A DNA stretch of 63,997 bases, the filler included, from Sanchytrium tribonematis (taxonomy: Eukaryota), in the NCBI GenBank assembly GCA_018985235.1. It is 7 parts of 7 records of this genome, joined end to end, with 100 filler letters (N's around TTAATTAATTAA, not from the genome) between each part and the next. Parts side by side here need not be neighbours in the genome. Positions count along the whole stretch, not along the records: positions 12,123 to 18,034 come from JADGIG010000567.1; 6 more parts are not named here. One strand, 5' to 3'. Positions 3,136 through 63,159 of this stretch are shown one piece after another. The stretch's first letter is position 1, and every line of letters starts with the position of its first letter. The notes below the pieces were generated by a model. That model had not been told where the DNA came from, did not search any database, and was given only the letters and a program-made list of their open reading frames with translations. The position numbers were made by a program, and so were the translations under genes.

Positions 3136-3255
3136 AATTAAATACCTGGCAACCAACTAAATAAATTTTTAAACTTTAAGAAATCCATTCGTTTATAAAC
3201 AAAGCCGGACTTCTTGCCAGATTTCAGGCCAATCCCGATTGCACTCCTTGAGACA

Positions 3256-5965: not shown

Positions 5966-6065
5966 NNNNNNNNNNNNNNNNNNNNNNNNNNNNNNNNNNN
6001 NNNNNNNNNTTAATTAATTAANNNNNNNNNNNNNNNNNNNNNNNNNNNNNNNNNNNNNNNNNNNN
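5966..6065. other. Artificial contig linker
   Basis: N44-TTAATTAATTAA-N44 six-frame stop spacer. Confidence 0.98.
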
Positions 6066-6217
6066 CACAAATATCATGAACAAATCAAGACTGCAGACAT
6101 GACAGAGACATTTAAGAACTTGAGACGACAATTGCCATTGACTAAACAGGAAATTGAGTGGGAAAAAGTAATTTTAATTTGATTTAGGTGGCTGGTTATC
6201 AAATGCTCAAAAAATAA
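6066..6217 (+). CDS. CAP1: F-actin capping protein alpha, C-terminal fragment, join(6066-6167,6188-6217)
   Basis: Not in ORF track. Reads ...MTETFKNLRRQLPLTKQEIEWEK|VAGYQMLKK*, matching the CapZ-alpha FK.LRRQLP.T...I.W.K...Y motif after removing a 20-nt intron. Confidence 0.85.
6168..6187 (+). other. 20-nt spliceosomal intron (phase 0)
   Basis: GTAATTTTAATTTGATTTAG; contains an in-frame TGA; removal restores the conserved C-terminus. Confidence 0.8.
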
Positions 6218-6230
6218 AATAAATTATTTA

Positions 6231-8629
6231 TTAAATGGCTGTTTGATTGCCCACTTTTGGCTTTTGTTTTCGCCACTGTCGAATGTTTAATATCAATTGC
6301 TGTGAAATAGCACCAAAGACAATCCCAGATATCAAGATTCGAATCATTTTCATCAATGATAAATCAATTAGAGCCATTTGGATTGGTTTGATATTTGACA
6401 GAATAATGGAGTTAGTTTGGGTTGAATTGGACATTTGGGTGACAGTTTTGGCGAATAGCAGGGTAGTTGAGACAGGTAAAATTGGTGTAGATGTTAAAAT
6501 GCGAGTGGGAATAGAAGGACCTAAATAAATGACAAATTACGAGTAATCTGGGTCATATCAGACTCATTAATAGAGAAAATGATAGTCGTGGCTCTCTCTG
6601 CTTCCATATGTGTTGTATTTGGTGCGTTTATTGTAGATTCTACAGAGTCTGGCCAATTTCGCGTGGTTGAGGCTAGATTTGTTAAAGTCGAGACTGTCGT
6701 ACTTGTAGCAACATATCTCGGTAGCACCTCTCCAAGAGCCAATATTCTACAGGTGCTCTGACTAGCCGTGTAAATCCCATTTAAATTGCATTGATTTTTA
6801 AATGTTTTACCAAACACTCCTGGTGCCATTGGATTATTGGCCAAACTACAATTTGATAACCCTATTGCATTGCTAATCAATACGTCATTCACTCTGTTAT
6901 TCCGTAAATACAGCTGAGAGGGTGCTAGAAATGACAAATTGCCACTCAAATAATTATCATTGAAATAGAAACTAGAGCCATTGAATTGGAAATTGATGCA
7001 GCCACTCAAGTAATTATGAGATATGTCTAATGTAGTAGCATATTGAAGGGATTTCGGGATGCTGCCAGTGAATGAATTGTTGGAAATATTAAAATAACTT
7101 AAATCTGACAAAATAGTTGGAATATTTCCAGTCAAATTGTTGTTTGACAAGTCAAATGTGGTGAGTGTTGATGGCAAATCATATGTGATGTTGCCCTGCA
7201 TCCCATTATTGTCCAATTTAAGCGTTTTAATACCTTGGGGAAGAGTCTTTGGAAATTTGGTAAATTTGTTAAAACTCAATCTCAGATCGTTAATTGTAGA
7301 GTATCCCAAATCCACATCACCAGATAACTGATTTTATGATACATCAACTAGTGAATAAACCAATGGCTTAAATTTCTGCAAATTACCAGAAAATGAATTC
7401 CACGACAAATCCAATTTTGTGATGCTATTCGTCAAATTAAGACTTGCAAGGTCTCCTGTTAGTTTATTATGCCCAATTAACAAATCAGTAAGTCCTGCTG
7501 GCCATGAGGTGGGCAGTATACCCGTCAATAAATTATTATTCAAATTCAATGTTAAAAGCGAATTTGGTAAATTTGGAATCGTTCCATTTAATTGGTTATT
7601 GCTCAAATCAAGAGTAGTCATTGCGCTATTAAGTGTAGGAATGGACCCGTAAATCTTATTTCTGGCTGCTTGAAAATTCTTTAGCGTTGCAGGGAAAGTA
7701 TTTGGTAATTTGTCGTAAATTAAATTGTCTGATATATTCATTTGTTGGATATTTGGTGGAAACGATGGAAGAGTTGTAAATAAGTTACCACCAATAGAAA
7801 TCCTCTGGGTCCCAACTGGAAATGAAGTCGGCAAAACACTCAATTGATTTTCACTCAAGTCCAAATCAAATAATTTTGATGGAAGTGAATTTGGAATAGC
7901 ACCTTGTAATACATTAGCTGATAAATACAAATATTTAATTGAGTTGGGAAGGTTGTTTGGAATGGTTCCAGTTATCAAGTTCTGATTGAGGTCAAAATCA
8001 AGAATATAACTTGGGCTAGGAAAAGATTTGGGGAATTGTGTCACTAAATTGTCATACATGAACAAATTATTCAGACTAGCCGGTAATGGAGGTACTTGAG
8101 TGAATTTTCCACTTTCTAAATACAAATCCGTGATGCTATTCGGAAGTGAAGCTGGCAATCCCGTCAATTGATTACTAGAAGCCCCAAACTCAATTAATTG
8201 ACTAGGTAGCGTATTTGGAATAGTACCTTGGAATTTACTATACCATAAATACAAATATAAGATACTGTTTGGTAGATCACTCGGAATTGTGGTATTCAAG
8301 GGCGTAGAGACGATTTCCAAATAAGTCAAAGCAGACGGGATAAATTGACTTTTCATCGTCCCATTGACATTTCCACCAGTAAGTCGAAATCCATCAAGAC
8401 GCTCATTTGGTGCGGTACCTGAACAGTACATGTAAAGATCCCCGAGACTACTACTTATAGTTGTCGTGCAACAATCTGCTGGAATACTTTGATAAAGCAC
8501 TGGATCCGTTAAATGAAGATTCAAACCCTGTAAAAAGTTGAGAATAACTGGGCAATCAACAGTAACTCCATATAGGTTCGTGATAAAGATCAAATAGATC
8601 ATCAAAATAGATTTTAGAGCAGTCATCAT
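6231..8629 (-). pseudogene. LRR receptor-like surface protein with one in-frame TAA (7334-7336) and a 20-nt intron
   Basis: Signal peptide, DC..CC..C cap, many LP.SL / L.G.IP LRRs, Ser/Thr stalk, TM, basic tail; DVS*NQLSG continues in the same frame. Confidence 0.75.
6521..6540 (-). other. 20-nt spliceosomal intron (phase 1)
   Basis: GTAATTTGTCATTTATTTAG; joins the stalk to the TM-coding ORF 6231-6434. Confidence 0.8.
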
Positions 8630-9116: not shown

Positions 9117-9757
9117 TTAAAATTGATTTTCTTTGTCAGTTAATGGGACATACATGACATCCATCAATGATTGTTTGTGATACTCATTGCCATTTCTTGT
9201 GACTAGCATTAATTTTTGATCTTGTTTGCCAACTGGAATTAATAATCTGCCATGATTGGATAATTGTTGTAATAAATCAGAATGTAATTCACTTGCAGCA
9301 GCACCTACATGAATCACATCATAAGGAGCATATGGCTTATATCCGAATCTGCCATCTACTGTAAAATATTGTAAATTGGTGATTTCTGGATTACCCTTTG
9401 AAACATTATTTTGAGATAATTTGACCAATTCTGGTAAATGATCAATGGCAATCACTTGATTATGGGTCAATTTAGCAAAACACGCTGATAAATACCCTGA
9501 TCCACATCCAATATCCAATATTTTATCATTTTCATGGATATTTAATAATTCTAATGCGTATGCGTGCATGTGGGGTGCTGAAATCGTAGCACCATATCCA
9601 ATAACTTGTGGGCTATCTGAATATGGGTGATTTGGGCAATAAAATTGACGATTGATTGAGACATGGCATAAAATACTTGATGAGATTTGATAATGGATGC
9701 TTCTTGTAGATTCTGGAGTAGTTTAATGTTGGAAGTGGCACTGCAAGTCCATGCCAT
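9117..9757 (-). CDS. PCMT1: Protein-L-isoaspartate O-methyltransferase with a 1-nt frameshift near 9655
   Basis: MAW..S..SN..L, PY.DSPQ.IG.GATISAPHMHA, LDIGCGSGY, APYDVIHVGAA, V.YVPLTD; split across two frames with no intron-like sequence. Confidence 0.85.
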
Positions 9758-9791
9758 TTGTGTTTTGACTAAAAATCTCCTAATTAAAAAT

Positions 9792-9992
9792 TTATTGATT
9801 TTCTGCAAAATCTGATTTTTGCTTTATTGGGCCCAATTTTGGTTTAAATATCTTGAAATCAAAATATTTCTGTAGTTCTTTCTTTAATTTGTCAATTTCA
9901 TCTTGCATTTTATTGATAATTAGTTGATTTTGATGCATTTCTATAAAATGTCTTTCTTTTAAAATTTTACAATTTTGACAAGAATCACACAT
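9792..9992 (-). CDS. Small coiled-coil hypothetical protein
   Basis: 66-aa ATG ORF filling the gap; stop fused with AATAAA. Confidence 0.45.
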   Translation of the reverse strand: MCDSCQNCKILKERHFIEMHQNQLIINKMQDEIDKLKKELQKYFDFKIFKPKLGPIKQKSDFAENQ

Positions 9993-12022: not shown

Positions 12023-12122
12023 NNNNNNNNNNNNNNNNNNNNNNNNNNNNNNNNNNNNNNNNNNNNTTAATTAATTAANNNNNNNNNNNNNNNNNNNNNN
12101 NNNNNNNNNNNNNNNNNNNNNN
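12023..12122. other. Artificial contig linker
   Basis: N44-TTAATTAATTAA-N44. Confidence 0.98.
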
Positions 12123-13788: not shown

Positions 13789-14779
13789 TTGGTTCGATCT
13801 TCCATCGGGATAATTATCAAATGCGGCTCCCCTGCCGCATCTGTGAAATATATCTACATGAAGAAATCTAAGCAATTTCAGTACGATTTAAATGATTTAA
13901 TGGAAATTTATGATAATTTGGAAAATGACGAATATTTAGCATGTATCACTGTAAACCCACAACACAATCCAACTGGGATCAATATGAGTGAATCACAAGT
14001 CAATGGATTGATTCAATTTGCTGATAAACACAAATCTGCACTTTTAATTGATGATGCAAATTTCGGTATTTGTAGTGCTGCAAAACCCACAATTGCATTA
14101 AAATTATTAGCTAACTACATTAAATCAGATGCATATAGTGGTAGCTTACTATGGTGTCAAGTGAGATCACTCGGTAAGCAATTCTCCTCAAATGGATGGG
14201 GAATTGGTAAATTTAATTTATTTAGGTTTCTGTGTGGCACATCCATCTGTGTTAAAACCATTGATGTGGAAATACTTTTATGCGCATTCATATGGTTCTG
14301 GTGTCCCATTACAACTAGCCATGTCTAAATTTTTAAATGATCCAGCAAGTACGCAATATTTGTCAAAAGTGAATGAAACCATGATTTTAAAGAAGCAATT
14401 CATTAAAAAGAGGTTTTTAGATTTAAATTATCCATCTGATGCTCTGATTGTAGGTGAATGTACATCTTACATGTTATTTGAAATCCCTCCTAAATTTCAT
14501 AAATTGTTGCAATCTCAAGTGGAGATGCTAAAACACAAGAAATCTAATAATTTAGATGTGTATCATGAAGATGATGGATATAACTATTTGGAAATTGCAT
14601 ATAGAGAACATATTGCAGAGAAATGTGGGTTGGTATTCGGATATTGCAGTATGATTAATCCTGAAAATACTGAAGATTATTATCCTGCCATGTTGAGAAT
14701 GTTTTTAGGACCATCTATGGATGTATTGGCTGAAGCAATGGATAGATTAGAAAAATGTGGATTCGGATGGAGTGAATAA
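13789..14779 (+). CDS. Class I/II PLP-dependent aminotransferase-fold protein, apparently 5'-truncated, join(13789-14206,14226-14779)
   Basis: NPQHNPTG, LIDDA, SLGKQFSSNGWGIG|FCVA (PLP Lys), LRMFLG; N-terminal part of the fold is missing. Confidence 0.75.
14207..14225 (+). other. 19-nt spliceosomal intron (phase 1)
   Basis: GTAAATTTAATTTATTTAG; restores GWGIGFCVAHP. Confidence 0.85.
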
Positions 14780-15784: not shown

Positions 15785-17942
15785 ATGGAAGCATTTTTGA
15801 TCACCAATGCCATTGGGATTATCGGTAAAATGCTACCCGTATTGCAACAAATCAAATTAGTCCATGAAAATTTTAAAGATGCAGATATTTTACTGGAAAG
15901 ACTCACACGATTAAACTTTATTTTAAAAGGGATGGAGATTAACAGACAATCAACCACCACCCATCACATACTGAGTGTACTAAATGATAAATTGAAGAAT
16001 GCGAGTGAATTTATTGTGGATTTTGCGGATAAACATGCTGTAAAAAAGATTTTATTGGCAGACAGATATCGCGATAAATTCATTGCTTTGAATGATGAGC
16101 TGTATAAAATGCTGTTTGAATTGGCCTTGTGTCAGACGATAGATATGAAAGACGGCGACGGAGAGATGAGTGGCAAATTAGAACAAATTATGGGAATATT
16201 GAAGGATATGTCTTTTAATGGATCCAATGAGGCATACAATGGAATATATGCGCATTTGAATGCATCAGCCAGTGAAATTCAAGAACCCTGGTAGCTTCAA
16301 AGTCAAATTAGATGCTTTATAGAAAAACAAAGCCATTTTGAGAGAAGTGAAGGCGTTTGAAAAATTAAACAAATCTCCGTTTATTGTTAAATTTTACGGC
16401 GTGACTGCCGTAGAGGATAATTTGGGATTCGTAATTGAGTATGTAGACAATTATACGCTCTACAGTTGGTTATATTTTGAGAGATCGCTCCCAAATGACC
16501 AAATCAATAAAATTCAACTCGGGATTGCCCGTGGACTCGCTTATATGCATCTAAATGGAATAGCCCATAATGACGTCAAATCCAATAACATCATGATCGA
16601 CAGTCTGTACATGCCCCGCATTATAGACTTGGGAATGGCTAAAATCACAAATTCAACTGTTTCTACAATTGGCAAAAATCGAACCATCGGCACAGATCAA
16701 TGGAGAGCCCCAGAATACTGGCAAATGTCACCAGATAATATGCGATATCGTAAAGAGTATCCATTCGCAGGTGATATTTACGCATTTGCAATCGTTTTAG
16801 GGGAAATTGCAACAAAAATCATTCCCTGGATTGATTTTAGTAGTGAGGATATTAAGCAAGCAGTTTGCCAAGGAATGAGACCCTATTCCAATACTGATAT
16901 AAAATCACACATATTTCAATTTATAGAAAAGTGCTGGTCTACAAATCCACAAAATAGACCAGATATGACTGAAATCAAGAATTTCCTACTCACTCTTGTA
17001 TCTCCACCATCCTTTAAACCTTCATTGAATAATCCCCTTTTTGCTAATAATTATCAGCCAAAAATCAATTCCGCTACACCCATTCCACCCAAGCCAATTA
17101 CACCCACTGTTGATTTATCCAATTTATACGGTCTTGATCTTTTAGACCTTTTAAAACAGTCTATATTTGATTGCAATCTCAATTTATTTGAGCCACTATT
17201 AATAAGAAGTACCGAATACATTTTTATCCACGACTTGGCTTTATTTTTTAAAACATTATGTAAAAATCACGCTGTAACATTAAATCAATTCAAAACATCC
17301 TTAAAATCATCTCATTTAGTGAATGATTCATATGTATTAGCATTAATATCCTATTATAATTTATTTTCCAAATCTAAAAAGCAAATTTATACCACATTTT
17401 TAGAATCAATCCATCGCAATTCTTTTTCATTGGTCATTCTGGGTGAATTATGTAAAAATGGTTACGGCGTTGTCAAATCAAAAGAAGAAGCATTCAACTA
17501 TTTTGAAAAAGCAGCAAAATTAAATATTCCATTAGCGCAAGTAAAATTGGGTGACTGCTATCGATATGGCAATGGTTGTAAAAGAAATCATACACTAGCC
17601 CACGATTATTACAATTTGGCAGCCAAAGCTAATTGTCCCCAAGGATTTTACTCTTTAGGATATAAAAATGAAAATCCTCTGTATTCTCTAAAGCAAGCCG
17701 CATGTGAGCATTTGATAAAAGGGGCCAAGTATGGATCTATCGAATGCATCTCATATCTTTTAGATATTATTGAGGATGTCACGCCTTTTATAACTCAGGA
17801 GGTGCGCCTTGATTGTGAAAAGAAATTGTTTGAATACAAGAAATATGGAATAATTCGTAAATACATAACTGTCAAAAATTATGGCTTCGCAAGTAAATTG
17901 CCATGGCAGTTGCAAAAGATGTACTGCAAGCATTTTCAATAG
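15785..17942 (+). pseudogene. MLKL/RPW8-like helical domain + TKL kinase + Sel1 repeats, interrupted at about 16290-16340
   Basis: Helical N-domain ORF ends at TAG 16294; kinase resumes in another frame at helix C with no Gly-loop or VAIK; HNDVKSNN, DLG, WRAPE; Sel1 repeats (AQVKLGDCYRYGNG). Confidence 0.7.
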
Positions 17943-18034: not shown

Positions 18035-18134
18035 NNNNNNNNNNNNNNNNNNNNNNNNNNNNNNNNNNNNNNNNNNNNTTAATTAATTAANNNNNNNNNN
18101 NNNNNNNNNNNNNNNNNNNNNNNNNNNNNNNNNN
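18035..18134. other. Artificial contig linker
   Basis: N44-TTAATTAATTAA-N44. Confidence 0.98.
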
Positions 18135-18135
18135 T

Positions 18136-21100
18136 AAAATTCCAATTGTTCCAAAAAGATTTGTAATTCCGCCTGCTCCGACTCAGACTAACTTATATAA
18201 AACTTGTAAATCAAAAAAGAACGTTGCTATGATCCTAAGTGGTGGTCCATCGATGTATTATAACGGCTATCTTAAGGTTCTCAATGACCTTAATGTAGTG
18301 GCTAATTTTTTCCCAGACTCCAACACCTCTGCAATGTGGTACAATCGAGATGCAATAGATTTAAATAAGCGAAACCAATTCGGTATGGGATCTTCGTGGG
18401 TTTTAGACTCTAAAAATGGAAAAATTACAAAGGTTACAAGTTTTGAAATTGCCACTAATGCCTCTCGAGATACGGTACAAATGCTGACTCACAACAATGG
18501 ATCTATGTTCATTTATCCTCCTTTTGATGGATACGATGCCCCAACCCTATTTAAGTGGAATCAAATGGGATATTATGTCGTAGGACCTTCGATCGATTCA
18601 CAGGATTGGCAAGTGAATGCTAATACTGATTCAGTACTGTCAAATGTACAGACTTTTTTAGATTCCGATTCAGATCAAGGCTACATTTTGTCCTGCAGTG
18701 GCTATAGTAATGTTTGCTTAAATGCACTACCCAGAATGGTAGGATTATTTTATAGTTATGGATATCAATTTGTGAGCTTGTCTACATGTTTGAACACCAC
18801 AGCAAATACAATTCCTGTTGCACACCCCGTGAGCTACAACAGTCCAGACAAATCTGTCACTTCTGGTACTGTCAGCAGTTTTTGTGGTCCAAATTACAAC
18901 AATCAGAATTGCGATGCCAATTATTGCTGTTCCATTTTTGGTACGTGTGGTCTAAATAAGAACTTTTGCTATGGTGACTATTTTTGTGGATGGTTGTGCA
19001 AAGGTGATACACCACCAGTGGTTGACGGTGCTTTAGAAGAACCAATCACAACTTGTTTGCCTGGAAATAAAAAGAAAGTCGCATTGACATTTGATGATGG
19101 ACCGCATTCCAATTACACCAACTTATATCTGGACATTTTAAAGGCAAGAAATATTACTGTTACTTTTTTTGCGAGCGGGTACAATTTGATTAAAAACGAA
19201 AAAGTTTTCAAAAGAATTATAAACGAAGGCCATGAAATTGCGCACCACACTTGGAATCACAGTGATTCTCAAGTATTAATGAGGACGCCGTATGCTTTTG
19301 ACTTGGATATGAATTCTACTTACAATTTATTGGTTCAATACACGGGGAAACATCCTTACTTTTTCAGACCACCATATGGTAGTTTCAATCAACTCACAAT
19401 GAATCGATGGAAGCAACTCAATTATCTTCCAATTATTTGGGACATCGACTCCAATGATTGGCGAAATCCGGACAAGTTTGACCTCGCATTTCAAAATATT
19501 AAAGATCAATTTTTGCAAGATACTGAGAGTGGACATATCATACTTTGTCACGATATTCATCCGACCTGTTTGGCTCATTTAAATGATATCATAGATCTTT
19601 TTCACAGTTACGGATACACATTTGTCAAAACTAGCGACTGTATTGGAGAGAAACCATTTTTAGAAGATCCCCACCCTCCTACACCTACTACCAAATATAC
19701 TGTACAATATCCGCCTACAAATGCTATACATAGCACCGCTATACCACTTACAACTGACGCGCCCCTCTTTTCAAATGCCACCATGCCACCTGCGCCACAA
19801 CAATTTCAAGCGTATGGACAATGCTCGAACAAAAAGGTTCACATATTTGTAGAGGATGGCCCTAGTGGCGATACAGTTGCAATGTTCAATGCTTTTAAGA
19901 CCTTGAAAATCCCTTTGACTTTTTTCATGAGTAATGACTCTCTGGATGAGCCGAGACAGATATTAGACATCAGCAAGGTTGACGATGTGGCACTTCTATT
20001 AAATACCATGCCAGTCACATCGAATAGTGCCATAGTCAATCAGAGCACATTCGATGCGTATGTGAATAACACTCGAGAAATTCTTCAAACTCTTACACAC
20101 AATCAAGCCGTAAAATTTGTTAAATTCGCAAATAATATGTACGACCAAGCTGTCACTGATAGACTCAATGAATTGGGCTACTATTTAATTAAAAGTAATT
20201 TGGATCCTGATGATTATGCTAAAAATGTTTCTCACACCATTGATGTTTTAAGTCAACAACTAGCATCAAATAGTAATCAAGGATATATGGTAAATTGCGG
20301 TGGATTTACCTCAGTATGCGCAGATGCAGCATCACAAATTAAAGATCTCTTTATAAGCAAAGGTTACACTTTTGTTTCTATAGAAGATTGTCTAGGTCTA
20401 GACCCACAAATTATTGAGATTCCTACAAAACAAATTTTTGGAAGTAATGCGACAAAGCCTGTAAGTGGATTGGTTGCCTCAGATGCACTTTGTGGACCAA
20501 ATTACGCAAATCAAGGCTGTGACACATTTTATTGTTGTAACATGTATTCTTTTTTAATTTAGATTTGGAAATTGTGGGCTTTCGGTGAACGATTGCTATG
20601 CAGATTATTTCTGTGGCTGGAAGTGTCATGGAAAAACTCCCAATTTGAAGCCGGGAACTCTGGAACAACCTATCAAGACTTGCGTCAACGACAAGGAAGT
20701 GGCACTTACATTTGATGATGGCCCACATGCTAATTATACTGACTTATACTTGGATATTTTGAAAGATAGAAAGGTAACGGCGACATTCTTTGTCAGTGGG
20801 TACAATCTTGTTAAAAACAGTGCCCAATTTATAAGAGAACTCAATGAAGGCCACCAAGTTGCCCATCACACCTGGAATCACACAGATAGTCAACTTTTGA
20901 TTCAAAATCCTGCAATGTTTGACTATGACATGAATTCTACAATTAATTTAATGCACAAGTTGAGCGGGTCTTGGCCAAATTTCTTTAGGCCTCCTTTTGG
21001 AAGCTACAATGTGGATGCTATGAACCGATGGAACGATTTAAAATTACTACCAATTATGTGGGATGTCGACAGTAACGATTGGAGAAATCCTGACAAGTTC

Positions 21101-31266: not shown

Positions 31267-32297
31267 ATGAGCGAAATTCCATCATATAGAGGTACTCTTG
31301 AAGGTCACGGAAATTGGGTTACAGCATTAGCCACCACTCCACATTATCCAGATATGTTGGTCAGTGCATCCAGAGATAAGACAATTTTAGTCTGGAAATT
31401 AACAAGAGAATCACAATACGGATATGCAAAAACTGCATTACATGGACATAATCACTTTGTCAGTGATATTGCTATAAGTGCTGAAGGATCTTATTGTATT
31501 TCTTCATCTTGGGATAAAACCCTCAGATTGTGGGATTTACAAACTGGTGAGACTCGCAGACGTTTTGTCGGACATGATGCTGATGTGTTGAGTGTTACAT
31601 TTTCACCTTCCAACAAAGTCATTTTGAGTGCTTCAAGAGACAAAACAGTCAAGTTATGGAATACTATTGGAGAATGTAAAGACACAATAAAGGATGCCCA
31701 CAGTGAATGGGTATCAACAGTTAGATGCTCTCCTAATCTTAAAAATGAAGCATTTGTTACAAGTGGATGGGACAAATTATTAAAGGTAAGTTATTTGATA
31801 AGATTATTTGGTGATAGTTGCTACTTCGGAGCTTTACTGCGATGAGATTTAAATATCCCAATGATCGAACAAAACTAACGAAGGTATGGGATATCAATAC
31901 TGGTAAGCTTAAGACCAAACATATGGGTCACACTGGATATGTCAACACTGTCACTATTTCACCTGATGGTTCATTATTTGCTTCTGGTGGTAAAGATGGT
32001 ACCACCATGCTTTGGGATTTGAATGAAGGCAAGCATCTTTATTCTTTGGATGCGCATGATCCAATCAATGCTCTTTGCTTTGCTCCTAATCGCTATTGGC
32101 TTTGCGCAGCTACAGACAAATGTATTATTATTCATGACTTGGAAACTAAGAGAATTGTTGATGAATTGAAACCCGATGTAGCTGAGGGTGAGGCTGTACC
32201 AAGACCAACGTGTTTAACTTGGTCTGCTGATGGTAGAACCTTGTTTGCTGGATACACTGACAACAAAATTAGAGTTTGGGAGATTACTGGCTCATAA
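31267..32297 (+). CDS. ASC1: RACK1/Asc1 WD40 ribosomal scaffold, join(31267-31785,31884-32297), 310 aa
   Basis: [52 protein letters not shown]. Confidence 0.96.
31786..31883 (+). other. 98-nt spliceosomal intron (phase 0)
   Basis: GTAAGT...ACTAACGAAG; restores WDKLLK|VWD. Confidence 0.92.
31793..31870 (+). ncRNA. Candidate intronic box C/D snoRNA, U24/snR24-like (degenerate boxes)
   Basis: RACK1/ASC1 intron is the snR24 host in yeast; contains TTGCTACTT-CGGA (guide + D'-like), GATGAGA (C'-like), TTGATAA (C-like), ATGA (D-like). Comparison to snR24 is from memory. Confidence 0.6.
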
Positions 32298-32428
32298 GGA
32301 AGCAATAAATTCATTTCACTTACCTCGCAATTGATCTGTGCAAGTGATTTCTATTCCTGCGAAAATTTGTTGATTGGTGGGATTGATTAAAAAATGCTGA
32401 TAAAGAAGACAGTTCAATTGAAGGCAAA

Positions 32429-32704
32429 ATGAATATTCCGATCCCATATACATGCAAGTTCAGCGGAAACACAATGAAAATGTGCTATATCTCTACAATA
32501 GGTGTTTCCGTAGCTGGTGCGGCTATAGTGTTCACGTTAATAATGTGCTGCGTAATTAGAAGGCGCCGTTCTTTGAATGCACTAAGGAAAGAATTAAAAG
32601 ACTTGGAAGATTACAATGAAAGAAAAGGCGCTAGATTTTCGCAAATGAGTCATAACAGACTTAGTTTATTTAACAATCGAACAATAGTGAGAAGCAATAA
32701 ATAG
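32429..32704 (+). CDS. Small single-pass membrane protein
   Basis: TM followed by CC..RRRR. Confidence 0.6.
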   Translation: MNIPIPYTCKFSGNTMKMCYISTIGVSVAGAAIVFTLIMCCVIRRRRSLNALRKELKDLEDYNERKGARFSQMSHNRLSLFNNRTIVRSNK

Positions 32705-32707
32705 AGC

Positions 32708-34354
32708 TCATGCTAAAGTCTGATCGTTCATTCTTTCCGGTTTTCTTTTGCCCTTGAATCTGTCTATTTTTCTTAAATATTCCTCAATTGTTGCCTGACT
32801 TACCGAACTTCTGATATTAAGTTCCACATTTCCAATTCCATTTGTATGACGATTTTCAGAAATAAAATCGTAGTAAATATTCAAAAACTCTGCTTCAATA
32901 TCACAAACAGTGCAATTCTTTACATAATGATACTTGACTCCATCAAAATCATATTTCTGACAAAGCATCTCCACTGCTTCTTGAAATTCACTTTCAGTCA
33001 AAAATTCGCATTCTACATGCGTATCCAGTCTTCCTGGTCTTAGTATTGCAGGATCTATAACATCTGGTTGAGATGTAGTTCCAATGACATAAACATTTCT
33101 AAGCTCTTCGCTGCCATCTAAAACCGTCAAAAACTGGTTCACAATTCTATCCGTTATACCAGATGAATCATGGCCTCTTTTCGGAACTAAGCAATCAATT
33201 TCGTCAAAGAGAATGACAAATGGGCTTCTGTTTAAAGCATCTGTGAAGATATCCCTTATGTTTCTCTCGGTTTCACCTATATATTTGGAAATGATCTCTG
33301 GACCTTTGACTATTTTATGAGACAAACCGCTCTGCCTTATAAATTCTTTAGCTAAACAAGACTTGCCGGTGCCAGTCATACCGTACAATAACACCCCTTT
33401 ACTTAAAGTAGGTAAACTCTGATACAATTTTTTGTATTTTAGCGGTCGCATAATGCAAGACTCAAGCGCTTTTTTGGCTGCCTCTAAACCGATGATTGGT
33501 GTTACTTGTTCACCCTTTTGGATATCTACATCTTTAATTTTTGATTTCCAAACAATTTCAGGAATTGAATTAATGTCAGTTCTTTCTAGATCAATACTTA
33601 CACTTGTATCAAACTCTTCGCAAATTTTGTTCAAAAGCCTTTGTTTGATTTCAAGACTTGTTCTATGATGCCTAGTGATCCATAGACCCGGAATATCCGC
33701 AATGTCTTTAGTGGATTCCGCCGCAATTATGACAGCTTGATTTTCTAGTTTCCGTACTGACCCCATGTAGTATCTAAATGTTTTTTCCATGTACTCGAAA
33801 TTTTTGATCTCTATGATGCAAGGCTGATATTTAAGTGCTTCTTCAATTTTCTCGTCAAAAAGCTCCTCCTTTAAATCTAAACTTCCTTGGACAATGACAA
33901 CATTTTCACAAGGCCATTCCACATCACAATAGCCAATATACAAATGCATCACTGGTTTGTGTGGATATAATTCTACGTCCAAAATAGGCCTTGTCCATTT
34001 GCAAATAATCTCCAAAATTGTATTTTCTCTTAATAAAAGACATTCTTCGTCTGGTTCCAGTTCTTTAATTTTGAATTTTAAATTTTCATATAATATAGGC
34101 TGGCTCTTAGCTACAAGCTTAATTTGTTTGAGTAGATTATTTTCGATATCACCTGGGTTTTTGACAGGTTGATCAATAGTACAAACCACCCGTTTAGCAT
34201 ACTTCACAGTTATTGGAATTATATCTGTGGTTGATTTTGGAACTAAAATAGAAGATTTATCAGCATAGACATAATATGGCTGTGGCCCAAGACATAAAAG
34301 TGGCCCTCTCTTCGGAGCTACAACTAGTTCAAAATCAGATTTGGAACTGGCCAT
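32708..34354 (-). CDS. PEX1: Reduced peroxin Pex1 AAA+ ATPase (548 aa)
   Basis: GVLLYG..GTGKS, PKRGHDSSG.TDR.VNQ, ILRPGRLD and C-terminal QTLA are Pex1-like; D1 degenerate. Confidence 0.78.
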   Translation of the reverse strand: MASSKSDFELVVAPKRGPLLCLGPQPYYVYADKSSILVPKSTTDIIPITVKYAKRVVCTIDQPVKNPGDIENNLLKQIKLVAKSQPILYENLKFKIKELEPDEECLLLRENTILEIICKWTRPILDVELYPHKPVMHLYIGYCDVEWPCENVVIVQGSLDLKEELFDEKIEEALKYQPCIIEIKNFEYMEKTFRYYMGSVRKLENQAVIIAAESTKDIADIPGLWITRHHRTSLEIKQRLLNKICEEFDTSVSIDLERTDINSIPEIVWKSKIKDVDIQKGEQVTPIIGLEAAKKALESCIMRPLKYKKLYQSLPTLSKGVLLYGMTGTGKSCLAKEFIRQSGLSHKIVKGPEIISKYIGETERNIRDIFTDALNRSPFVILFDEIDCLVPKRGHDSSGITDRIVNQFLTVLDGSEELRNVYVIGTTSQPDVIDPAILRPGRLDTHVECEFLTESEFQEAVEMLCQKYDFDGVKYHYVKNCTVCDIEAEFLNIYYDFISENRHTNGIGNVELNIRSSVSQATIEEYLRKIDRFKGKRKPERMNDQTLA

Positions 34355-34414
34355 TTAAGTGCTCCTTGAAATTAAACTATCAAATGAAAACAATTTTTAT
34401 TGTCGAAATGGTTA

Positions 34415-35881: not shown

Positions 35882-36031
35882 TTTGCAAATTAGAACGGGA
35901 AACGTATTTACAAAGACTATTTACCCAATCAGGAAGATTGGTCATTAATTGATCACGAGAGTAAAGTCAAATTCTAAGGAACTCGTGGTATTCTTAAAAG
36001 TGCTTTATTCAGCGCTCGTTGTGAAATAAAT

Positions 36032-36743
36032 TTACTCCTGATTTTCGTCTGCCTCCTCATCATCGGGCTGATGCTCCCAGGCAGCTTTTACAACTAGCTG
36101 ACGTCCTTCGATTTCTTTTTCATTGAATAGACTGATGGCTTTTTTTTGGTCCTTCTCAGAAGCAAATTCTACAAACCCAAAACCTTTGCTTAAAACTCTT
36201 GTTCTAGTTTTTCTCGTAATTACCTGAGAATTCGTCACTGTAAGACCCTGCTCTTCAAACAATGTCTTCAAATTCTCGCTTTCATATTTCCATGGCAAAT
36301 TTCCAACATAGACGTTGGTCTTCGTCGCAACTTTTTCTCCCTCAATAACCTTCTAAATAAAAAATTAGTACCGGTTTGCCACCCTTATAATTGGCACTAG
36401 GAACACGAGAACTCTCAGCAGCATCTCTTCCACCTCGGCCACGACCCTTTCCACGTCCTCTACGACCTCTGCTACTTCTTTTCTGCTCAGATCTTTCTTG
36501 TTGGACTTCGACTTTAATAGCTCTATCCAATAAAGTAGTTTGGTCCATTTTTGTAATTAGTTCATCAATGTCATCAGCCTCGATTTCCACATAACCATAT
36601 CCCAATTTCTTGCCATTTCTTTCCTTGATCTCTACAGAAATAACTTTAGCGGAGTCTTTAAAATGATCTTTTAATTGCTCATTAGTAACCTCATAACTAA
36701 GATTACCCACGTACAACTTACAACCATTTTGTTCTTCTGACAT
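36032..36743 (-). CDS. RRM-RGG-RRM RNA-binding protein (Sbp1-like), join(36743-36372,36352-36032), 230 aa
   Basis: LYVGNL, GYGYV, RGG tract, then VYVGNLPW and SKGFGFVEF after splicing. Confidence 0.85.
36353..36371 (-). other. 19-nt spliceosomal intron (phase 0)
   Basis: GTACTAATTTTTTATTTAG; brings RNP2 of RRM2 into frame. Confidence 0.88.
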
Positions 36744-36879
36744 TAGGGGAAGTAATCAATTATGATTTTATAGAAATTATTAAAGGATCAACGGCGTTAA
36801 AATATTCTCAAAACCATATATTGGATTATTTCAAATTAGTTGAAAGTCCCAATTGTTTTTTGCTTATCTGAAACTCTTG

Positions 36880-37149: not shown

Positions 37150-37186
37150 AATTACCGTTTTTCATTACAATAAATACTTGTAGAAT

Positions 37187-38393
37187 TTATTTAGGTGCAT
37201 TGAAAATGAATAAATTATTTGTAGCTGCTACCGCCAAGGTATTTTCTTTAGGGTGCCAACTGGCATACAACATTTTCTTAGAGAAGTCCATTTCCTTGCT
37301 CACTATATTAATTCAAGATACCAGTCATTTTCTTTTTCAATTTTCTCTGTTTAAATGCTACTTTGTCTGCTTGCAAAACAGTTTCCGCACCTGTGTGAGC
37401 TCCATAAATGTGGAAATAATTACTATAGGATCCAGTCAAGCAATATTCCGAATCGCCTGACCAAGTGCATTCAAATTTATCAAAAATACAGTCATTTTCG
37501 TATAGGTCACACAGCTTAGATCGAAGCTGATCATGAATTGCGATTGAATTTACAGGCTTTGAATTATTTCGGATATCCCAAATTTTCAAATGAAGGTAGT
37601 CTCTTGCCAATAAGTAATTACCGTCAGGCGAAAATTGCACATCACTTATGCTAGAAATAATTTCGCTGAAAAATGTCCGCGCAGCAGGGTCCTCTTCCTC
37701 CCCAAAGTTGGTTGCATTTTGGTCTAAAAGAGCATTTTGTCTCATATCGCAAAGCTTAATGCATCCTCTAGAAATAGCATATGCGAGTATATTACAAGAG
37801 ATGGGGTGAAATTGTGCGGCAGTTATCACCTCTGTCAATTCTTCCATATTCGGTGGCTTCATGTCTACAATGTTAAAGGATTTATCAGGGTGAGAAAGAT
37901 CCCAAAGATTAACTCTTAAGTCGTCTGCACTCAAAAATGTACAGCCGTCACTATTAACACTGATGCTGTTAATATGATATGCATGAGCATGCTGAAACGA
38001 TTTTTTAGGCTGGGCAGCAATTACTGATGGATTTCCTTTTTCGTAAATTTTCCACAGCTTTATAGTTTTGTCATTAGTGCTTAGTAAAAAATGGCCGTTT
38101 GTATTATATGGAAGCCATTTAAGTTTGTTGATTTTTTCTTCAATTTCTAAAGATTTTAAATAATCAAATTCAGGTTCATGACTTTGGAATTCAGTATAAA
38201 ACTGATATTCTTTGAATTGCTGTTGTTTGGTGCCTTTTTGTTGTCTAAATAAGACGACTCGGCCACCCCTATCTCCCGTCGCTAAATATTCCCCAGACTT
38301 GTTAAATTGAATTGCACTTATTATATCAGATTCGGTATAAGAATCTTCGTTCTTTTCTCCGAAACATTGCACACACTGCCAATCTAAATTCAT
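37187..38393 (-). CDS. CDC55: PP2A regulatory subunit B55, join(38393-37322,37302-37187), 395 aa
   Basis: [32 protein letters not shown]; exon 2 gives [24 protein letters not shown]. Confidence 0.96.
37303..37321 (-). other. 19-nt spliceosomal intron (phase 1)
   Basis: GTATCTTGAATTAATATAG; restores the conserved B55 C-terminus. Confidence 0.92.
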
Positions 38394-42847: not shown

Positions 42848-42858
42848 ATAAAACAGGT

Positions 42859-44434
42859 TTATTGCCAAGTTTTAAAGAATCCCTCAATTTGGGCCTTCAA
42901 TTCACCTTCGATCGATTTGTCCAATTGTCCTTTTGATCTAATCTTTTCAAGTACTTCTTTTCCGGTTTCTCTCATGTACGGTAAAAATGCTTTTTCAAAC
43001 TCAGTGATTCTTTTAGTTTCAACTTTATCTAAAAATCCATTCACACCACAATAGATCAAAGCCACCTGGTCTTCAACAGGTAGAGGCTTATACTGATCTT
43101 GCTTTAATAATTCAGTTAGTCTAGCACCTCTATTTAATAAGAATTGGGTAGATGCATCCAAGTCACTACCAAATTGTGCGAATGCAGCAACTTCACGATA
43201 TTGAGCCAAAAATAATTTCAAAGAGCCAGCAACTTGCTTCATAGCCTTTAATTGTGCTGCGGAACCTACACGAGATACACTTAGACCAACATTAATAGCT
43301 GGTCTTACACCTTTAAAGAATAACTCTGCTTCCAAGAAAATTTGACCGTCAGTGATCGAAATGACATTAGTTGGAATATAAGCAGAAACATCACCTCCTA
43401 AATTAATATGTTGTACCTTGAGTTTCAATGACTGGAAGTGCTGTCAAAGAACCGGCCTTGAATTCATCATTCATCTTTGCAGCTCTTTCCAATAATCTCG
43501 AGTGCAGATAAAACACATCACCAGGGTAAGCTTCACGACCAGGAGGACGTCTTAACAATAAAGACATTTGACGATAAGCAACAGCTTGCTTGCTCAAATC
43601 ATCGTAAATAATTAATGAATGCTTTCCGTTATCTCTAAACCACTCACCCATAGCACATCCAGAATATGGAGCTAAGAATTGAAGTGGAGCAGCCTCGGAT
43701 GCTGTAGCAGCGACTACAATCGAATATTTCAAAGCATCATTTTCTTCTAACGTTTGAACAAATTGGGCAACTGTAGATCTCTTTTGCCCGATCGCAACGT
43801 ACACACAATAAAGTTTTTTGGACTCATCGGAGCCCTGGTTCCATTTCTTTTGATTTAAAATAGTGTCCAGAGCAACAGCTGTCTTTCCTGTCTGACGATC
43901 ACCAATAATTAATTCTCTTTGCCCTCTACCAATTGGCACCATACTATCAATACATTTAATGCCAGTTTGCATAGGCTCATGTACAGATTTTCTTGGAATA
44001 ATACCAGGAGCCTTCAATTGTACTCTAGTTCTAGTAGATGATTTAATTGGCCCTTTCCCATCGATAGGATTGCCGAGAGCATCAACAACTCGACCTAATA
44101 GCTCAGGACCAGTTGGAACATCGACGATATTTCCAGTTCGCTTCACAGTGTCTCCTTCTTTAATTAATCGATCATTTCCGAAGACCACAACACCGACATT
44201 ATCAGCTTCCAAATTCAATGCCATTCCTTGAAGTCCACTGCTAAATTGCACCATCTCTTCTGCTTGTACATTTTTTAAACCATACACACGAGCAATACCA
44301 TCTCCGATGCTTAATACTCGACCACTTTCTTGTAATTCGGGCTGGTTTCCAACTATTTTACCCTCCAATATACTGGTTAATTCTGCTGCTTTTGGCTTTT
44401 GCAAACGTACCAAGCTTGTGACTCTCGCGAACAT
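42859..44434 (-). CDS. ATP1: Mitochondrial F1 ATP synthase alpha, join(44434-43417,43397-42859), 518 aa
   Basis: [51 protein letters not shown] across the intron. Confidence 0.98.
43398..43416 (-). other. 19-nt spliceosomal intron (phase 1)
   Basis: GTACAACATATTAATTTAG; boundaries fixed by the conserved ETQGGDVS motif. Confidence 0.96.
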
Positions 44435-44587
44435 TTTGTCTCAAAGGGACCTCCGTGATTTTTTGCATATCCAAAAATCATTAGAGACATGTAAAAGTTA
44501 ATGCAGGATGGATCAAGGTCTCAAAAATCTTTATTTTGAATGAACAATTATAATATAAATTATAAAGGAGATGCCTGCTGATACCAA

Positions 44588-48913: not shown

Positions 48914-50255
48914 TTAAAGAGAAGCTAATTTTCCAAATAAATCTTTCCAATTTCCTGTCGGATCAATTAAATAAATAGAATCATAAGCGTTCTGTATTTG
49001 AGAATCTGTGGCATTAGGATACAATGAATGGATTGCATTTTCAAATTTCTGCTTAGATGAAAGAATATGAACATCAGGAGACAGTACCACAGGCGAGTCA
49101 ATCAAAGGTCTCGATGTCTTTTGTTTCATTGTTCCTCTCACTGTGCCATATTCATCTTCATTTGTTCTACCTCCAAAGGTCTCTATATTTGAATTGTCGG
49201 TTATAGGAGCCGAGATGAGAGGAGCTTGAAAATTGGAAATTTTGAGTGTTCCACTTTCATTATTCTTAGATTTCGCTTTCACTGTACCCTTTTTTACCGT
49301 TCCAAAATCCCATTCAATATCTATTTCTCTAAGTTAATATTAGATACTTTTCGGCATCACTTTCATTTTCTTCCTCTTCCTTTGATGGATTCTCTGCTTT
49401 TATTCTATCTCTTCTTTCTATCAACTCAGTTAAGTAGCTTGTCTTTTTAACTTTGACGAAAAATTTGTGCTTTAGAAGCTCCTTCGCAGATGGTCTACTC
49501 TCTGGATCTTTTTGCAAACAGGCGGCGACAAATTCTTTAAATTCTCTTTTGTAATCACCTTCCAGAGCTGGAGGATCATTCTTCGGAATAATAAAAAGAA
49601 CTCGCATTGGATGCATTTCAGCATGTGGTGGTTCGCCTTTCGAAAGCTCGATAGCTGTAATTCCGAGTGACCAAATATCGGCTTTATAATCATAACCGAC
49701 TTGTTTAATAATTTCTGGCGCCATCCAGAATGGTGTGCCAACAAACGTATTTTTTTTCGTCATTGTGGCACTTATTTGTCCACTGACCCCAAAATCTGCC
49801 AATTTAACACTTCCATCTCCAGTCAATAAAATGTTTGCACTTTTTATATCCCTATGAAGTTTTTGCTGAGCGTGAATGTATTCCAGCCCCTTCAGTACTT
49901 CCCTTAAAATTATACAAGAATACACTTCTTCAAAACCTCCAATTGTCTTTAATAAATCCAAACAACTTCCACCAGCCGCATATTCCATAACAATCCATAA
50001 ATTTGTAGTTTCTAAAAATGAAGCATAGAATTTGGTAATAAATGGGCAATCTAATTGAGACAATATTTGAATTTCTTGCTGTATGTCCTCGATTTCATCT
50101 TCGGCTTGTTCCAAATTAATCACTTTGATCGCGACAGCTTCTCCAGATTCAGCGTTATATCCTTTATATACACTGCCAAATGATCCCTTTCCAATTCTAT
50201 TTTGTCTAACAAAATGACTTGCATTGGAAATATGAGTTTGACTCTGTTGAGACAT
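48914..50255 (-). CDS. GCK-III (MST3/STK25-like) STE20 kinase, join(50255-49348,49328-48914), 440 aa
   Basis: [47 protein letters not shown] after splicing. Confidence 0.92.
49329..49347 (-). other. 19-nt spliceosomal intron (phase 2)
   Basis: GTATCTAATATTAACTTAG. Confidence 0.88.
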
Positions 50256-50801: not shown

Positions 50802-51804
50802 ATGTTGAGCAGTTCCGATAAGTTTCAATCGTCCTCCACAGGATACCTCTGTAAGCAATATAAGATAGACAAATGTATTGGAAAAGGAAGCTTTGGCTGT
50901 GTACTGAAATGCAAAAAAGGTCAAAGCTTTTACGCTATTAAAGTTTTACATAAAACTCCAGAATTTTATGAACTGGGATTACATGAGATTTCGTTACTTA
51001 AAAATCTCAAGCATCCAAATGTTGTGAGCTTTGTACATCACTTCGTCGACCAGGGTCATTTAAGTATTGTATTTGAATTGTTAGGACCTAGTCTTTATGA
51101 GATATTAAAGAAACGAGACTACAAAGGATTCAATTTAAAAGTCATTGCAAGTATATCAGAACAGCTTTTATCGGTATTGATCTATTTAAGAGAAAAGAAA
51201 ATATGCCACGCTGATTTAAAGCCAGAAAATGTTTTGTTTGTTGAAGAGTTTACTACGAAAATCAAATTGATCGATTTTGGAAGTGCCTGCATTGACCCAA
51301 AATACTCATATATACAATCAAGATATTACAGGAGTCCAGAGGTACTTCTTTCTGCTCCATATGGAGTACAAATGGATATGTTCAGCTTTGGGGTTATGCT
51401 GGCTGAGTTGTATACTGGAAAGCCATTGTTTGCTGGAGAAAACGAGCACTCTCAGCTAATACTTATATCTAAAATATTAGGGAAACCGCCGCAATACATA
51501 CTTTATGCGTCAAATAGCTTAAAAATTGATAAATTCTTTGGTACTTTATGCTCATCTAGACTGCTTTTATAATTGGCAACCATGTCATTCAAAAAGAAAC
51601 ACGTATACCGGTTGCAATATTATAAAAAGTCCAGTGGAGGTTCGAGAGTCTCTGGGTGTCGTGCTCCAGTTACCGCAAACACACGATTTTATAGATTTGC
51701 TATCGAAATGTATAACATGGGATAGTATACAAAGAATTATACCCTCTGATGCAATAAGCTCTAAATTTATAAAAGGTCAAAAAACCACGTTTTTAGGATC
51801 CTAA
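50802..51804 (+). CDS. DYRK/Yak1-family kinase, join(50802-51540,51560-51804), 327 aa
   Basis: HADLKPEN, IDFGSAC, YIQSRYYRSPE. Confidence 0.9.
51541..51559 (+). other. 19-nt spliceosomal intron (phase 1)
   Basis: GTACTTTATGCTCATCTAG; brings kinase subdomain XI (FIDLL.KC..WD...R) into frame. Confidence 0.88.
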
Positions 51805-51852: not shown

Positions 51853-52390
51853 ATGAATTTTAATTCTGATTTTGTAGATGTCTTAAATTCTTTGCCGAAT
51901 GAGATCGTTAGTAAGCTGACCACTCTAAAGGAAAAAGATGCTATTGGAAATCAATATTTTGACGAGCTGGAGCAAAAAACCAAGAATATTATAGATCTAG
52001 ATGAAAAATTATCTGATTCAGATACCACAAAATTGTATGATCTGTTTAAAAGAACATTGACTATATATGAAGAAAAAGTAGCGATAAGCTCGCAAATGCA
52101 TGACCTTGTTGAATCAAATATTAGAAGAATTGATGAAGATTTACAAAGAATGTCAGCGAATGACAATGTGGCTCCAACCATGCATATAGAAGTTGAGCAA
52201 AAGTATTGCTATTGTCAACAACCGGCTAGTGGAGAGATGGTCGGTTGTGATGCTGACAATTGTCCTATTGAGTGGTTTCATTTGGGATGCACAAATTTGA
52301 TCAAAATCCCAACAGGTAAAAATTATTTATGAAGGCAAATGGTATTGCGACGAGTGTTTAGGAAAAAGAAAAGTTGGGATAAAAAGATAA
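51853..52390 (+). CDS. ING-family PHD finger protein, join(51853-52315,52335-52390), 172 aa
   Basis: LNSLP.E coiled-coil, YCYCQ....GEMVGCD..CPIEWFH..C, P.G|KWYC..C. Confidence 0.93.
52316..52334 (+). other. 19-nt spliceosomal intron (phase 1, AAG acceptor)
   Basis: GTAAAAATTATTTATGAAG; required for the last two PHD Cys. Confidence 0.92.
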
Positions 52391-60488: not shown

Positions 60489-63159
60489 ATGTACGCGCTA
60501 CTTCTCTCTATTTTGATATCTGTCTCACAAGACTGTCCCATACTAGTCCAATTAGCACTAGTTATGGATTTCAAGTATACAAACACGGATTATTTCATTC
60601 AATATGAAAAAGATTGTTGTTTGGGAGTCGGGGTAATTTGTGAAAATAATCTGGTGACAGAGATTCATTGGGGATTTCCAGCAGATCACCTCAAGAATTC
60701 AGTACCAGTTGTCACATTCCCTCCAAATTTACGTGTATTGGACCTGGCAAATATCAAAAAATCAATGATAATTAATGATTTACCAAGTTCATTACAAATA
60801 TTGGATTTAACTTATGCTGAAAATGTAATAGTTGATTTAAAGAAGATTCCTTACTTGAAAGTGCTTCGATTGAAGATTAATAATCTCGACAACAGAGCAA
60901 TCTTGCCAAGATTGCCAGACTCATTGGAAGAATTAAACATCAACTATTTTGGTGACGATTATTTGCCCCTGAACCCTGTCAATTTGATAAAAATTTACTT
61001 TGTATGCATTTACAATGTAAATTCCCCAGATATACTATTTCCCATATTGCCAGATACTATTGAATTTATTACTCTTGCGAATTGTAGAATGTATGGTCCT
61101 ATTGCTGTAGATTTTAAAAGTTTAATAAGCATCAATGTGTATGAAAATAAAATTTCTGGAAATTTAACTATTTCTTCCCCAAATATTACAAAATTAGATT
61201 TGGATGGGAACGAATTTGATAGGCTATTCGTCAAATATCCTGAAAAACTCACATTTTGTAGTAATTATTATAATTATTTCGAGTCCGATAATGAAAGTGA
61301 ATTACAGAAATTGTTACCGTATGGTTGCGGATATAATTTGAAAGCCAGTTCCCCTCCAGAATGCCCAAATATCATTGAATTTGCAAAGCAATTAAATATG
61401 CACAAAGTGGCACCAGATTTGTTTGTCAAATTAGTGAGTGGTCCAAATTGCTGTGTAACATTAAGAAATTATGTTGCTTGCATTAACAACAAAATAGATG
61501 CGCTTTATTTTCAAGATTTGCGATTGAATGGCACCATTAATGGCACTTTACTACCGCCTTCTTTTTATGGACTTTACTTGGGTTTCAACAAGCTGTCTGG
61601 TCCATTTCCTGATTTGAAAATGGTATCTTTAACTTACCTTTCCCTAACTGATAATCAATTAAGTGGAACAATTGACAATAAACTACCAAATGGAATTGCT
61701 TATTTAGATATTAATTCAAACAATTTAAATGGAACAATTCCACTATTTCCTGGTTTGGGATATCTTAGCTTCGCCAATAATAAGTTTAGCAAAATAGATA
61801 ACACTCTGACAGTGAATCAAGATATAGATTTCAGCTTGGAAAACAATAACTTTTATGGAGTTGTAGATTTGTCACATACAAATTCGCGTTATTTATATAT
61901 TCAAAATAATTATATTGAACAAATCATAGTTTCTCAGCCAATCACCATTTCAAATTGCGATATCTCAATGAATAATATTCTACCAGGGAATTTCACAAAT
62001 TTCATGAATTGTAGGCCATATATTCAACGAATTGATGCATCTTCATTGGACTCTTGTAAATATGTTGTGAAAATGTTTCAAAAATTAGGGATTTCTAATC
62101 CATTAATTGAAACAAATTGCTGTCACTCGAGACTTGAATATTACACAACTGTATGTATTGGAAAACAAGTGATTGAATTAAAGATATCTTCTACAAATAT
62201 ATTTAAAACTGTAAATGGATATGCATTTGATGCTGCAGATGTGCCACCATCTCTACAAAAATTGACAATTACTGGTTTATTTAATCAAACTGCCATATTT
62301 CCAAATATGACATCCACAAATCTGACATTTCTGGAAATCAAATCTGCCAATATTGACAAAATATTTATAAAGTCTCCCACATTGCCCAAATCATTGTCCA
62401 AATTGCATATTTTATATTGCAATCTTACTGGTAGTATCATGAATTTACCACCCAGTTTACAGGAATTGCAAATTCAAGGTAATTATTTGACTGGCCCATT
62501 TCCAGTGTTTCCTGTTACTTTAAATAGCATCATACTTGGTGATAAAGCCAAAGAAGGTAATTCATTTAATGACAAGTTGATTTTACAACAGCCATTGTCA
62601 ATAATTTTGGGAAGTACAAATATTTATGATGTATTCATTCAAAACACGAGTTTATTGACAAATTGTGACTTGTCATTCAATCCGCTATTAAATAGTACCA
62701 ATATTGGTAATTATACAATGTGCAAACAATATTATTTGACTCCAAAAATAGACAAATTACAAATTGGCTCTGCTGTTTCATCTATCAATTTGTCTTTCAC
62801 AAATACTGCAGCACAAGAATATACAACAGATTCCACCCAGGATGATTCAAAATCAAGTAATTTGTATTTATTTAGTTGTCACCCGTGTATTTTTCAAAAC
62901 CACCACCAGAGATGTTTCAAATAACTCAGATTTGACTCTAAAAAATGACTGGAGTGAATCATCAACTTCAAAAAACTCAATAACACTCTCTAAATTTCAT
63001 TATAATGTCAAATTATTTGAAATTAATTGGAATTGGCAAATGATTACCCGATTGGAAATCAGTCTTTTGCTGATTGTGAGTTTATTAACTCGTTTAACAG
63101 TATTAAAGAGAAAGAAAACATCAAATAAGCCTCAATCTTTCACAATGGGTGATGTTTAA
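60489..63159 (+). CDS. Three-module LRR receptor-like protein, join(60489-62856,62876-63159), 883 aa
   Basis: Three Cys-capped LRR blocks (DCP..CC, ECP..CC, SCK..CC), stalk, TM, KRKK. Confidence 0.85.
62857..62875 (+). other. 19-nt spliceosomal intron (phase 1)
   Basis: GTAATTTGTATTTATTTAG; joins ectodomain to TM exon. Confidence 0.85.

Follow-up and report, generated by a model that had tools for sequence, protein, structure and literature searches.

Putative 19-20-nucleotide introns with a predicted branch adenine at a fixed distance from the acceptor in Sanchytrium tribonematis

In Yarrowia lipolytica, the intron branch site is fused to the acceptor, with a gap of 2 nt and no pyrimidine tract (Irimia and Roy 2008, PMC2483917), and Trichomonas and Giardia likewise have anchored branch sites that lack a pyrimidine tract (PMC2483917). 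Entamoeba invadens has an anchored branch site at -8 (bioRxiv 10.1101/2022.06.08.495308). Tiny introns are reported from heterotrich ciliates, mikrocytids and nucleomorphs (PMC10245619) and from myxozoans and dicyemids (PMC13644364). For instance, chlorarachniophyte nucleomorph introns measure 18-21 nt and mikrocytid introns 16-17 nt (PMC10245619), and the introns of Stentor coeruleus are 15-16 nt long, with nucleotide 10 of the 15 as the branch A (Nuadthaisong 2022, PMC9505925). The introns of Encephalitozoon cuniculi, about 37 in number, range from 22 to 76 nt, with strict donor and branch motifs (PMC3629993, PMC6349667) and the branch consensus CTAAYTT (PMC2483917).

Sanchytrium tribonematis belongs to the sanchytrids, a little-known group of algal-parasite fungi in which introns as short as those described below are apparently unreported. 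Searches of the literature on sanchytrid and early-fungal introns yielded no paper on sanchytrid nuclear introns, and earlier mention in subscription papers or supplements is possible; two of the papers use the word 'intron' solely within the title of a reference, and the available portions of PMC8476143 and PMC13685798 added nothing on this group. The sanchytrid proteins of Galindo et al. 2021 were predicted by TransDecoder on contigs, with introns ignored (PMC8371127), and the string 'splic' is absent from the main text of that paper.

We analysed one 63,997-nt stretch of S. tribonematis DNA (the window), which holds 63,397 real bases in seven pieces. The six spacers between them (5966-6065, 12023-12122, 18035-18134, 47008-47107, 53013-53112 and 59010-59109; 100 bases each, consisting of 44 N, TTAATTAATTAA and 44 N) are non-biological joins. 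We scanned for GT...YTNAYNNAG and then translated across the candidates, a procedure that UTR introns, stop-free introns of 3n length and motif-less introns of genes without relatives may escape. The 64-kb window contains twelve GT-AG inserts, at a density of about 0.19 per kb: nine measure 19 nt, two measure 20 nt and the remaining one measures 98 nt. The rescan matched exactly the twelve introns, and their last nine bases, that an earlier note on this DNA had listed.

6168..6187, plus strand: 20 nt, phase 0, F-actin capping protein alpha; sole short GT-AG solution.
6521..6540, minus strand: 20 nt, phase 1, LRR protein gene; sole short GT-AG solution.
14207..14225, plus strand: 19 nt, phase 1, class I/II PLP aminotransferase-like gene, with 14220 as the predicted branch A.
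20544..20562, plus strand: 19 nt, phase 2, multi-domain polysaccharide (chitin) deacetylase; sole short GT-AG solution, with PF01522 on both sides.
31786..31883, plus strand: 98 nt, phase 0, RACK1/ASC1; spliced junction gap-free against full-length RACK1 proteins.
36353..36371, minus strand: 19 nt, phase 0, between two RRM domains; five short options, chosen by motif.
37303..37321, minus strand: 19 nt, phase 1, PP2A B55 subunit; sole short GT-AG solution, placed also by alignment, same position in four relatives.
43398..43416, minus strand: 19 nt, phase 1, ATP synthase alpha (ATP1); same position in four relative proteins.
49329..49347, minus strand: 19 nt, phase 2, STE20-type kinase; three short options.
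51541..51559, plus strand: 19 nt, phase 1, DYRK-type kinase; sole short GT-AG solution.
52316..52334, plus strand: 19 nt, phase 1, PHD finger of an ING protein; sole short GT-AG solution, with WYCDEC read from the spliced frame.
62857..62875, plus strand: 19 nt, phase 1, second LRR protein gene; seven short options, chosen by motif.

All twelve inserts begin with GTA and end in YTNAYNNAG. By column, Y at -9, T at -8, A at -6 and Y at -5 are each found in 12/12, as the earlier note had claimed, position -7 may be any of the four bases, and the gap between the branch motif and the AG is always 2 nt. The intron at 14207-14225 on the plus strand, which serves as our example, is GTAAATTTAATTTATTTAG (19 nt). 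Removal restores the reading frame in every case, no insert has a length divisible by three, 7-8 of the 12 interrupt the frame in phase 1, and GC content is low (11-37%; AU-rich). None of the 11 short inserts contains an internal AG. From these features of the DNA and its translation, it is very likely that the 19-20-base inserts are introns that are spliced out.

A search that starts from a motif could create the very pattern it reports, and the geometry was weighed against selection bias and chance. With every frame-restoring GT-AG pair listed at 20 junctions, the motif-bearing intron is the sole solution of 40 nt or less at six of the 11 short junctions. The ATP1 and RACK1 introns are placed by homology alone, through gap-free alignment to full-length homologues; in ATP1, splicing joins IETQ exactly to GGDVSAY, and positions 171 and 173 of Pfam PF00006 flank the junction. 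The flanking homology varies among the other genes: exon A of capping protein alpha matches Pfam PF01267 up to position 254 of 263, the PP2A-B55 junction alignment falls in a variable region, and in the DYRK-type kinase exon A matches DYRK2 while exon B does so weakly (E 0.27-0.42). Altogether, eight of the 12 introns are placed without the motif. Given the base composition of the introns themselves, the motif has a 7.4% chance of occurring in any one of them, and all eight would carry it by chance with a probability of about 1e-9. At the other four junctions (the example, RRM, STE20 and second LRR genes) there are 3-7 short alternatives, and placement is partly by motif.

Across the window as a whole, the four motif features occur together at 2.4% of 6403 AG sites. 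Matches to GTA..YTNAYNNAG number 11 at length 19 and three at length 20, whereas other lengths average 1.81, and no GTA-plus-motif match of 18 or 21 nt was found on the sense strand. Order-3 Markov simulations (n = 60) produced 3.55 +/- 2.0 matches with a maximum of 10, compared with the 14 observed. When the motif is instead set 0, 1, 3, 4 or 5 nt from the AG, length-19 matches drop to 2-4 and the excess is gone. In 200,000 trials with shuffled intron interiors, an all-A column appeared once and an aligned YTNAY never. The fixed YTNAY-NN-AG geometry is confirmed as a real property of these introns.

How do the sanchytrid introns compare with the described systems? They resemble those of Yarrowia in having the A at -6, a fixed distance to the AG and no pyrimidine tract, but Yarrowia introns have a median of 204 nt and a strict ACTAAC, whereas 11 of the 12 introns described here measure 19-20 nt and their YTNAY is degenerate; the window set does not show the strict ACTAAC-like branch consensus of anchored introns, and CTAAC itself occurs in one of the 12 (the 98-nt intron). 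In Encephalitozoon, the AG directly follows the branch consensus. Encephalitozoon shares with S. tribonematis its standing as a fungal-lineage parasite with miniature GT-AG introns, and its rare long introns are proposed hosts of C/D snoRNAs; the sanchytrid introns differ in being shorter, with weaker signals, and in belonging to a separate lineage adjoining Blastocladiomycota. Nucleomorphs and mikrocytids similarly combine a narrow length class with a reduced genome but are unrelated lineages. The introns in the window fall within the tiny, AU-rich class of 15-21 nt, as do the lengths implied for relatives (19, 19 and 20 nt), and one relative likely has 22 nt. Stentor shares a fixed -6 A, a 5-nt tail, AU-rich sequence, two adjacent lengths and a very short loop, and the earlier note was right to draw this parallel (PMC9505925). 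Stentor is however a ciliate, its loop is 10-11 nt rather than 14-15 nt, and its branch region is without a strong consensus, whereas T at -8 and Y at -9 and -5 are fixed here. In eight complete non-sanchytrid RACK1 introns at the same junction, the A of the last CTRAY lies at -6 in one, at -12 in two, at -14, -23, -26 or -41 in others, or the motif is absent. Given this one -6 case in eight and the 2-nt gap of Yarrowia, the fused geometry is a recurring and known state. What looks new is the lineage, in which introns lie below the 22-nt minimum reported for Encephalitozoon.

We next consider the relatives of S. tribonematis. The best ATP1 matches are an ENA protein and Amoeboradix gromovi (94%), followed by Blastocladiella and Allomyces (86-88%), and identity to A. 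gromovi is 93.6% for the ATP1 exon 1 product, 98.3% for PP2A-B55 and 93.2-96.0% for the RACK1 parts. RACK1, PP2A-B55 and ATP1 lie together at 31267-44440 and on one A. gromovi contig, which is conserved synteny. In the public protein collection, ATP1, RACK1 and PP2A-B55 are truncated or split at their introns, and exon fragments of the window appear as separate proteins. The inserts in these three genes are found at matching codons in relatives whose genomes were assembled independently. For eight read-through tails of relative ATP1 and PP2A-B55 proteins, with intron lengths not divisible by three, compatibility with an intron was judged through degenerate codons rather than bases. Three tails span the whole intron, agree with the motif at 6/6 testable positions and allow a single length (P0122, 19 nt; P0366, 19 nt; P0124, 20 nt). 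Two A. gromovi tails end in a stop codon that, for a 19-nt intron, would occupy positions -8 to -6, and the window shows the same arrangement. The identical ATP1 tails P0001 and P0123 are incompatible with 19 or 20 nt and would require either 22 nt with 3/6 motif positions or a motif-less 17 nt, and the tail of P0367 is uninformative on both length and motif. This back-translated evidence points to short introns of the same geometry throughout the sanchytrids, with some variation in length. Further searches were negative: scanning metagenome contigs with a degenerate ATP1 motif gave 0 matches, a RACK1 scan (at least 80 loci) gave none above 64% identity among the matches listed and no sanchytrid DNA, and protein-cluster look-ups for ten lone ORFs and four ORFs of the window returned no relatives, with three further ORFs absent from the protein collection.

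The example intron lies in a PLP aminotransferase-like gene at 13789-14776 (+). Exon A corresponds to positions 115-226 of Pfam Aminotran_1_2, matches CcbF-like PLP enzymes (the best solved relatives) up to the donor, and ends on an SxxKxF..GW motif. Exon B, in a different frame, is aminotransferase-like by language-model features (0.95) and has no match in the PDB. Since the two exons are in different frames, a frame change is needed, and the 19-nt intron provides one. The junction has five short GT-AG options, and the motif is found in 14207..14225 only. A search of prokaryote genomes with this gene gave one match, at 31%; if the gene is of bacterial origin, its 19-nt intron was gained recently. 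Roughly the first 115 positions of the profile are missing from the gene, which sits close behind a GNAT gene.

Based on these data, we propose that the inserts are probably tiny U2-type spliceosomal introns, that the A at -6 is the predicted branch point, and that near-fixed length lets each intron be read as a single unit. U2 snRNA would pair with positions -11 to -5 and leave the -6 A bulged; the branch motif forms 4-6 of 6 pairs, including G-U, with the canonical U2 recognition sequence, where the U2 used is the conserved consensus and not that of S. tribonematis. The major spliceosome would then treat each tiny intron as one unit and would use neither a strong donor nor a pyrimidine tract. 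The donor would have shrunk to GTA with little further information, near-fixed length and high AU content would add specificity, branching would give a 14-15 nt loop and a 5-nt tail, and the acceptor would be the first AG after the branch. The earlier note had named the -6 A as the branch point; the geometry is indeed fixed and this is the best reading of it, with the branch as a predicted position. Its loop of 14-15 nt holds for our predictions in the 11 short introns but not in the 98-nt intron (93 nt). Only 2-4 nt would separate the donor from the branch helix, so U1 and U2 probably act one shortly after the other, or with a smaller protein footprint.

It is conceivable, though on balance doubtful, that the introns are removed by a remodelled spliceosome in which U1 pairing is bypassed or U1, U2AF, Slu7/Prp18 or parts of SF3b have been lost, a reading implied by the earlier note that extends the proposal above and does not replace it. 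The donor is only GTA, with no G at +5 in 11/11 short introns, and a 14-15 nt loop contrasts with the requirement for about 50 nt in human extracts (PMC6692369), which makes the steric argument of the earlier note reasonable. U1 snRNA is reported as not identified in Encephalitozoon (PMC3629993), and only U2, U4 and U6 as identified in Mikrocytos (PMC10245619). However, the donor of the long intron is still GTAAGT, the canonical complement of U1 and U6, and Stentor removes 15-nt introns, with loops shorter than those predicted here, while retaining U1 snRNA, U1 core proteins, SF3b and U2AF, with Slu7, Prp18 and similar factors the only ones lacking hits (PMC9505925). Factor loss is therefore not implied by short loops.

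Other readings dispense with the -6 branch point or with tiny introns of the major class. The TTTCAG of C. elegans is an extended acceptor motif read by protein, and the -6 A could likewise belong to such a motif while the true branch lies elsewhere, for example at an A at -7 or -10. An A is present at -10 in eight of 12 introns and at -7 in five, and positions -5 to -3 are mostly T, but upstream of the AG no column other than -6 consists entirely of A, and the CTAAC of the long intron falls in the same register; we regard this reading as improbable. Minor (U12-type) introns, defined by the donor GTATCCT and the branch CCTTAAC, likewise have no pyrimidine tract and place the branch near the acceptor, and three introns here start with GTAT, two of them with GTATC. 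Yet neither consensus is found in any of the 12 and positions +4 to +6 vary freely, which makes a U12 identity very improbable. Amplification or assembly artefacts and pseudogene lesions would also interrupt reading frames, and the window does hold other breaks (one in PIMT, three LRR breaks and one in a kinase) with the look of nonsense codons or indels of a single base. These breaks have a 19-20 nt GT-AG solution in 0/8 cases (seven viewed at base level), whereas the 12 inserts share their ends and motif and those of ATP1, PP2A-B55 and RACK1 recur in the assemblies of relatives. We accordingly give almost no credence to an artefact and retain the proposal of tiny U2-type introns.

The 98-nt RACK1 intron is the only one with both GTAAGT and CTAAC, and it contains the following element:

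31793..31848, plus strand: U24/SNORD24-like box C/D core within the 98-nt intron, with a C-like box, a TTGCTAC guide, and D'-like and C' boxes.

A snoRNA model was built from eight segments with the conserved guide, taken from non-sanchytrid, fungi-like RACK1 loci and excluding the window. Positions 31793-31848 are its top match in the window (E 1.1e-6; next 0.037), covering model positions 4-62 of 93; the 3' third, with the D box and 3' guide, is unmatched. The training segments themselves reach 30.7 bits against RF00069 (gathering threshold 41) in one of the four loci scanned. Rfam, RF00069 included, gave no hit in the window at E up to 1, and RF00069 none up to 10; an antisense TarA match near the long intron (E up to 10) was dismissed as chance. 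The fold of the intron is unremarkable (z -1.57). The read-through tails of P0244 and P0370 conserve this core as well. Among 80 RACK1 matches listed from other eukaryotes, an intron is present at the same junction in nine and absent in 60, and the junction was not located in 11. In yeast, U24 is hosted by an intron of ASC1 (PMC4888481). The window candidate shares the host gene (ASC1/RACK1) and the guide core, at a junction shared with the fetched homologues, but it is diverged, without an Rfam hit, and its D box and 3' guide are not recognised by the model. By these resemblances, the 98-nt intron likely hosts a diverged U24 snoRNA, and it likely escaped shrinking because it does so. We infer that it keeps full-strength signals because length cannot define a long intron. 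One non-sanchytrid RACK1 intron (6535-6718 of locus L034; 184 nt) ends in CTAAC-TT-AG, with the A at -6, and is without the U24 guide.

If the proposal of tiny U2-type introns is correct, sanchytrids would represent an independent fungal origin of sub-21-nt introns beside a sister group with ordinary genomes, and comparing the two would test which components of the spliceosome have to be altered to accommodate a lariat loop of 14 nt. A bolder extrapolation, which we consider rather unlikely as a whole, is that sanchytrids carry about two thousand unannotated introns of 19-20 nt, shorter than any other nuclear introns in fungi, and remove them with a remodelled spliceosome guided by length and the branch A without U1 pairing, while GTAAGT/CTAAC recognition serves a few long introns that host snoRNAs. 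Proteomes predicted blind to introns (PMC8371127), together with the split ATP1, RACK1 and PP2A-B55, may bias analyses of gene loss and domains in this phylum.

The window also contains frame breaks and motif matches that are not introns. The eight other breaks resemble single-base indels, nonsense codons or gene boundaries. Breaks at 9120-9823, 7334-7336, 57772-57774, 58130-58302 and 55941-55971 on the minus strand and 16291-16323 on the plus strand look like assembly errors or pseudogenes; a protein isoaspartyl methyltransferase (PIMT) gene has a single-base shift, LRR genes have a shift and in-frame stops, and a kinase has a broken start. Motif matches at 20349-20367 and 61964-61983 were rejected as antisense, and matches of 15-18 nt (for example, 33586-33601, 37180-37194 and 3157-3174) were also rejected. 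In a final example, a perfect GTA..YTNAYNNAG 19-mer at 25633-25651 (-) lies on the coding strand inside an uninterrupted 1854-codon ATM/Tel1-like frame. This natural decoy demonstrates that motif and length are insufficient for intron identity, and from its presence in an intact frame we infer that the cell must use additional cues or degrade mis-spliced RNA.
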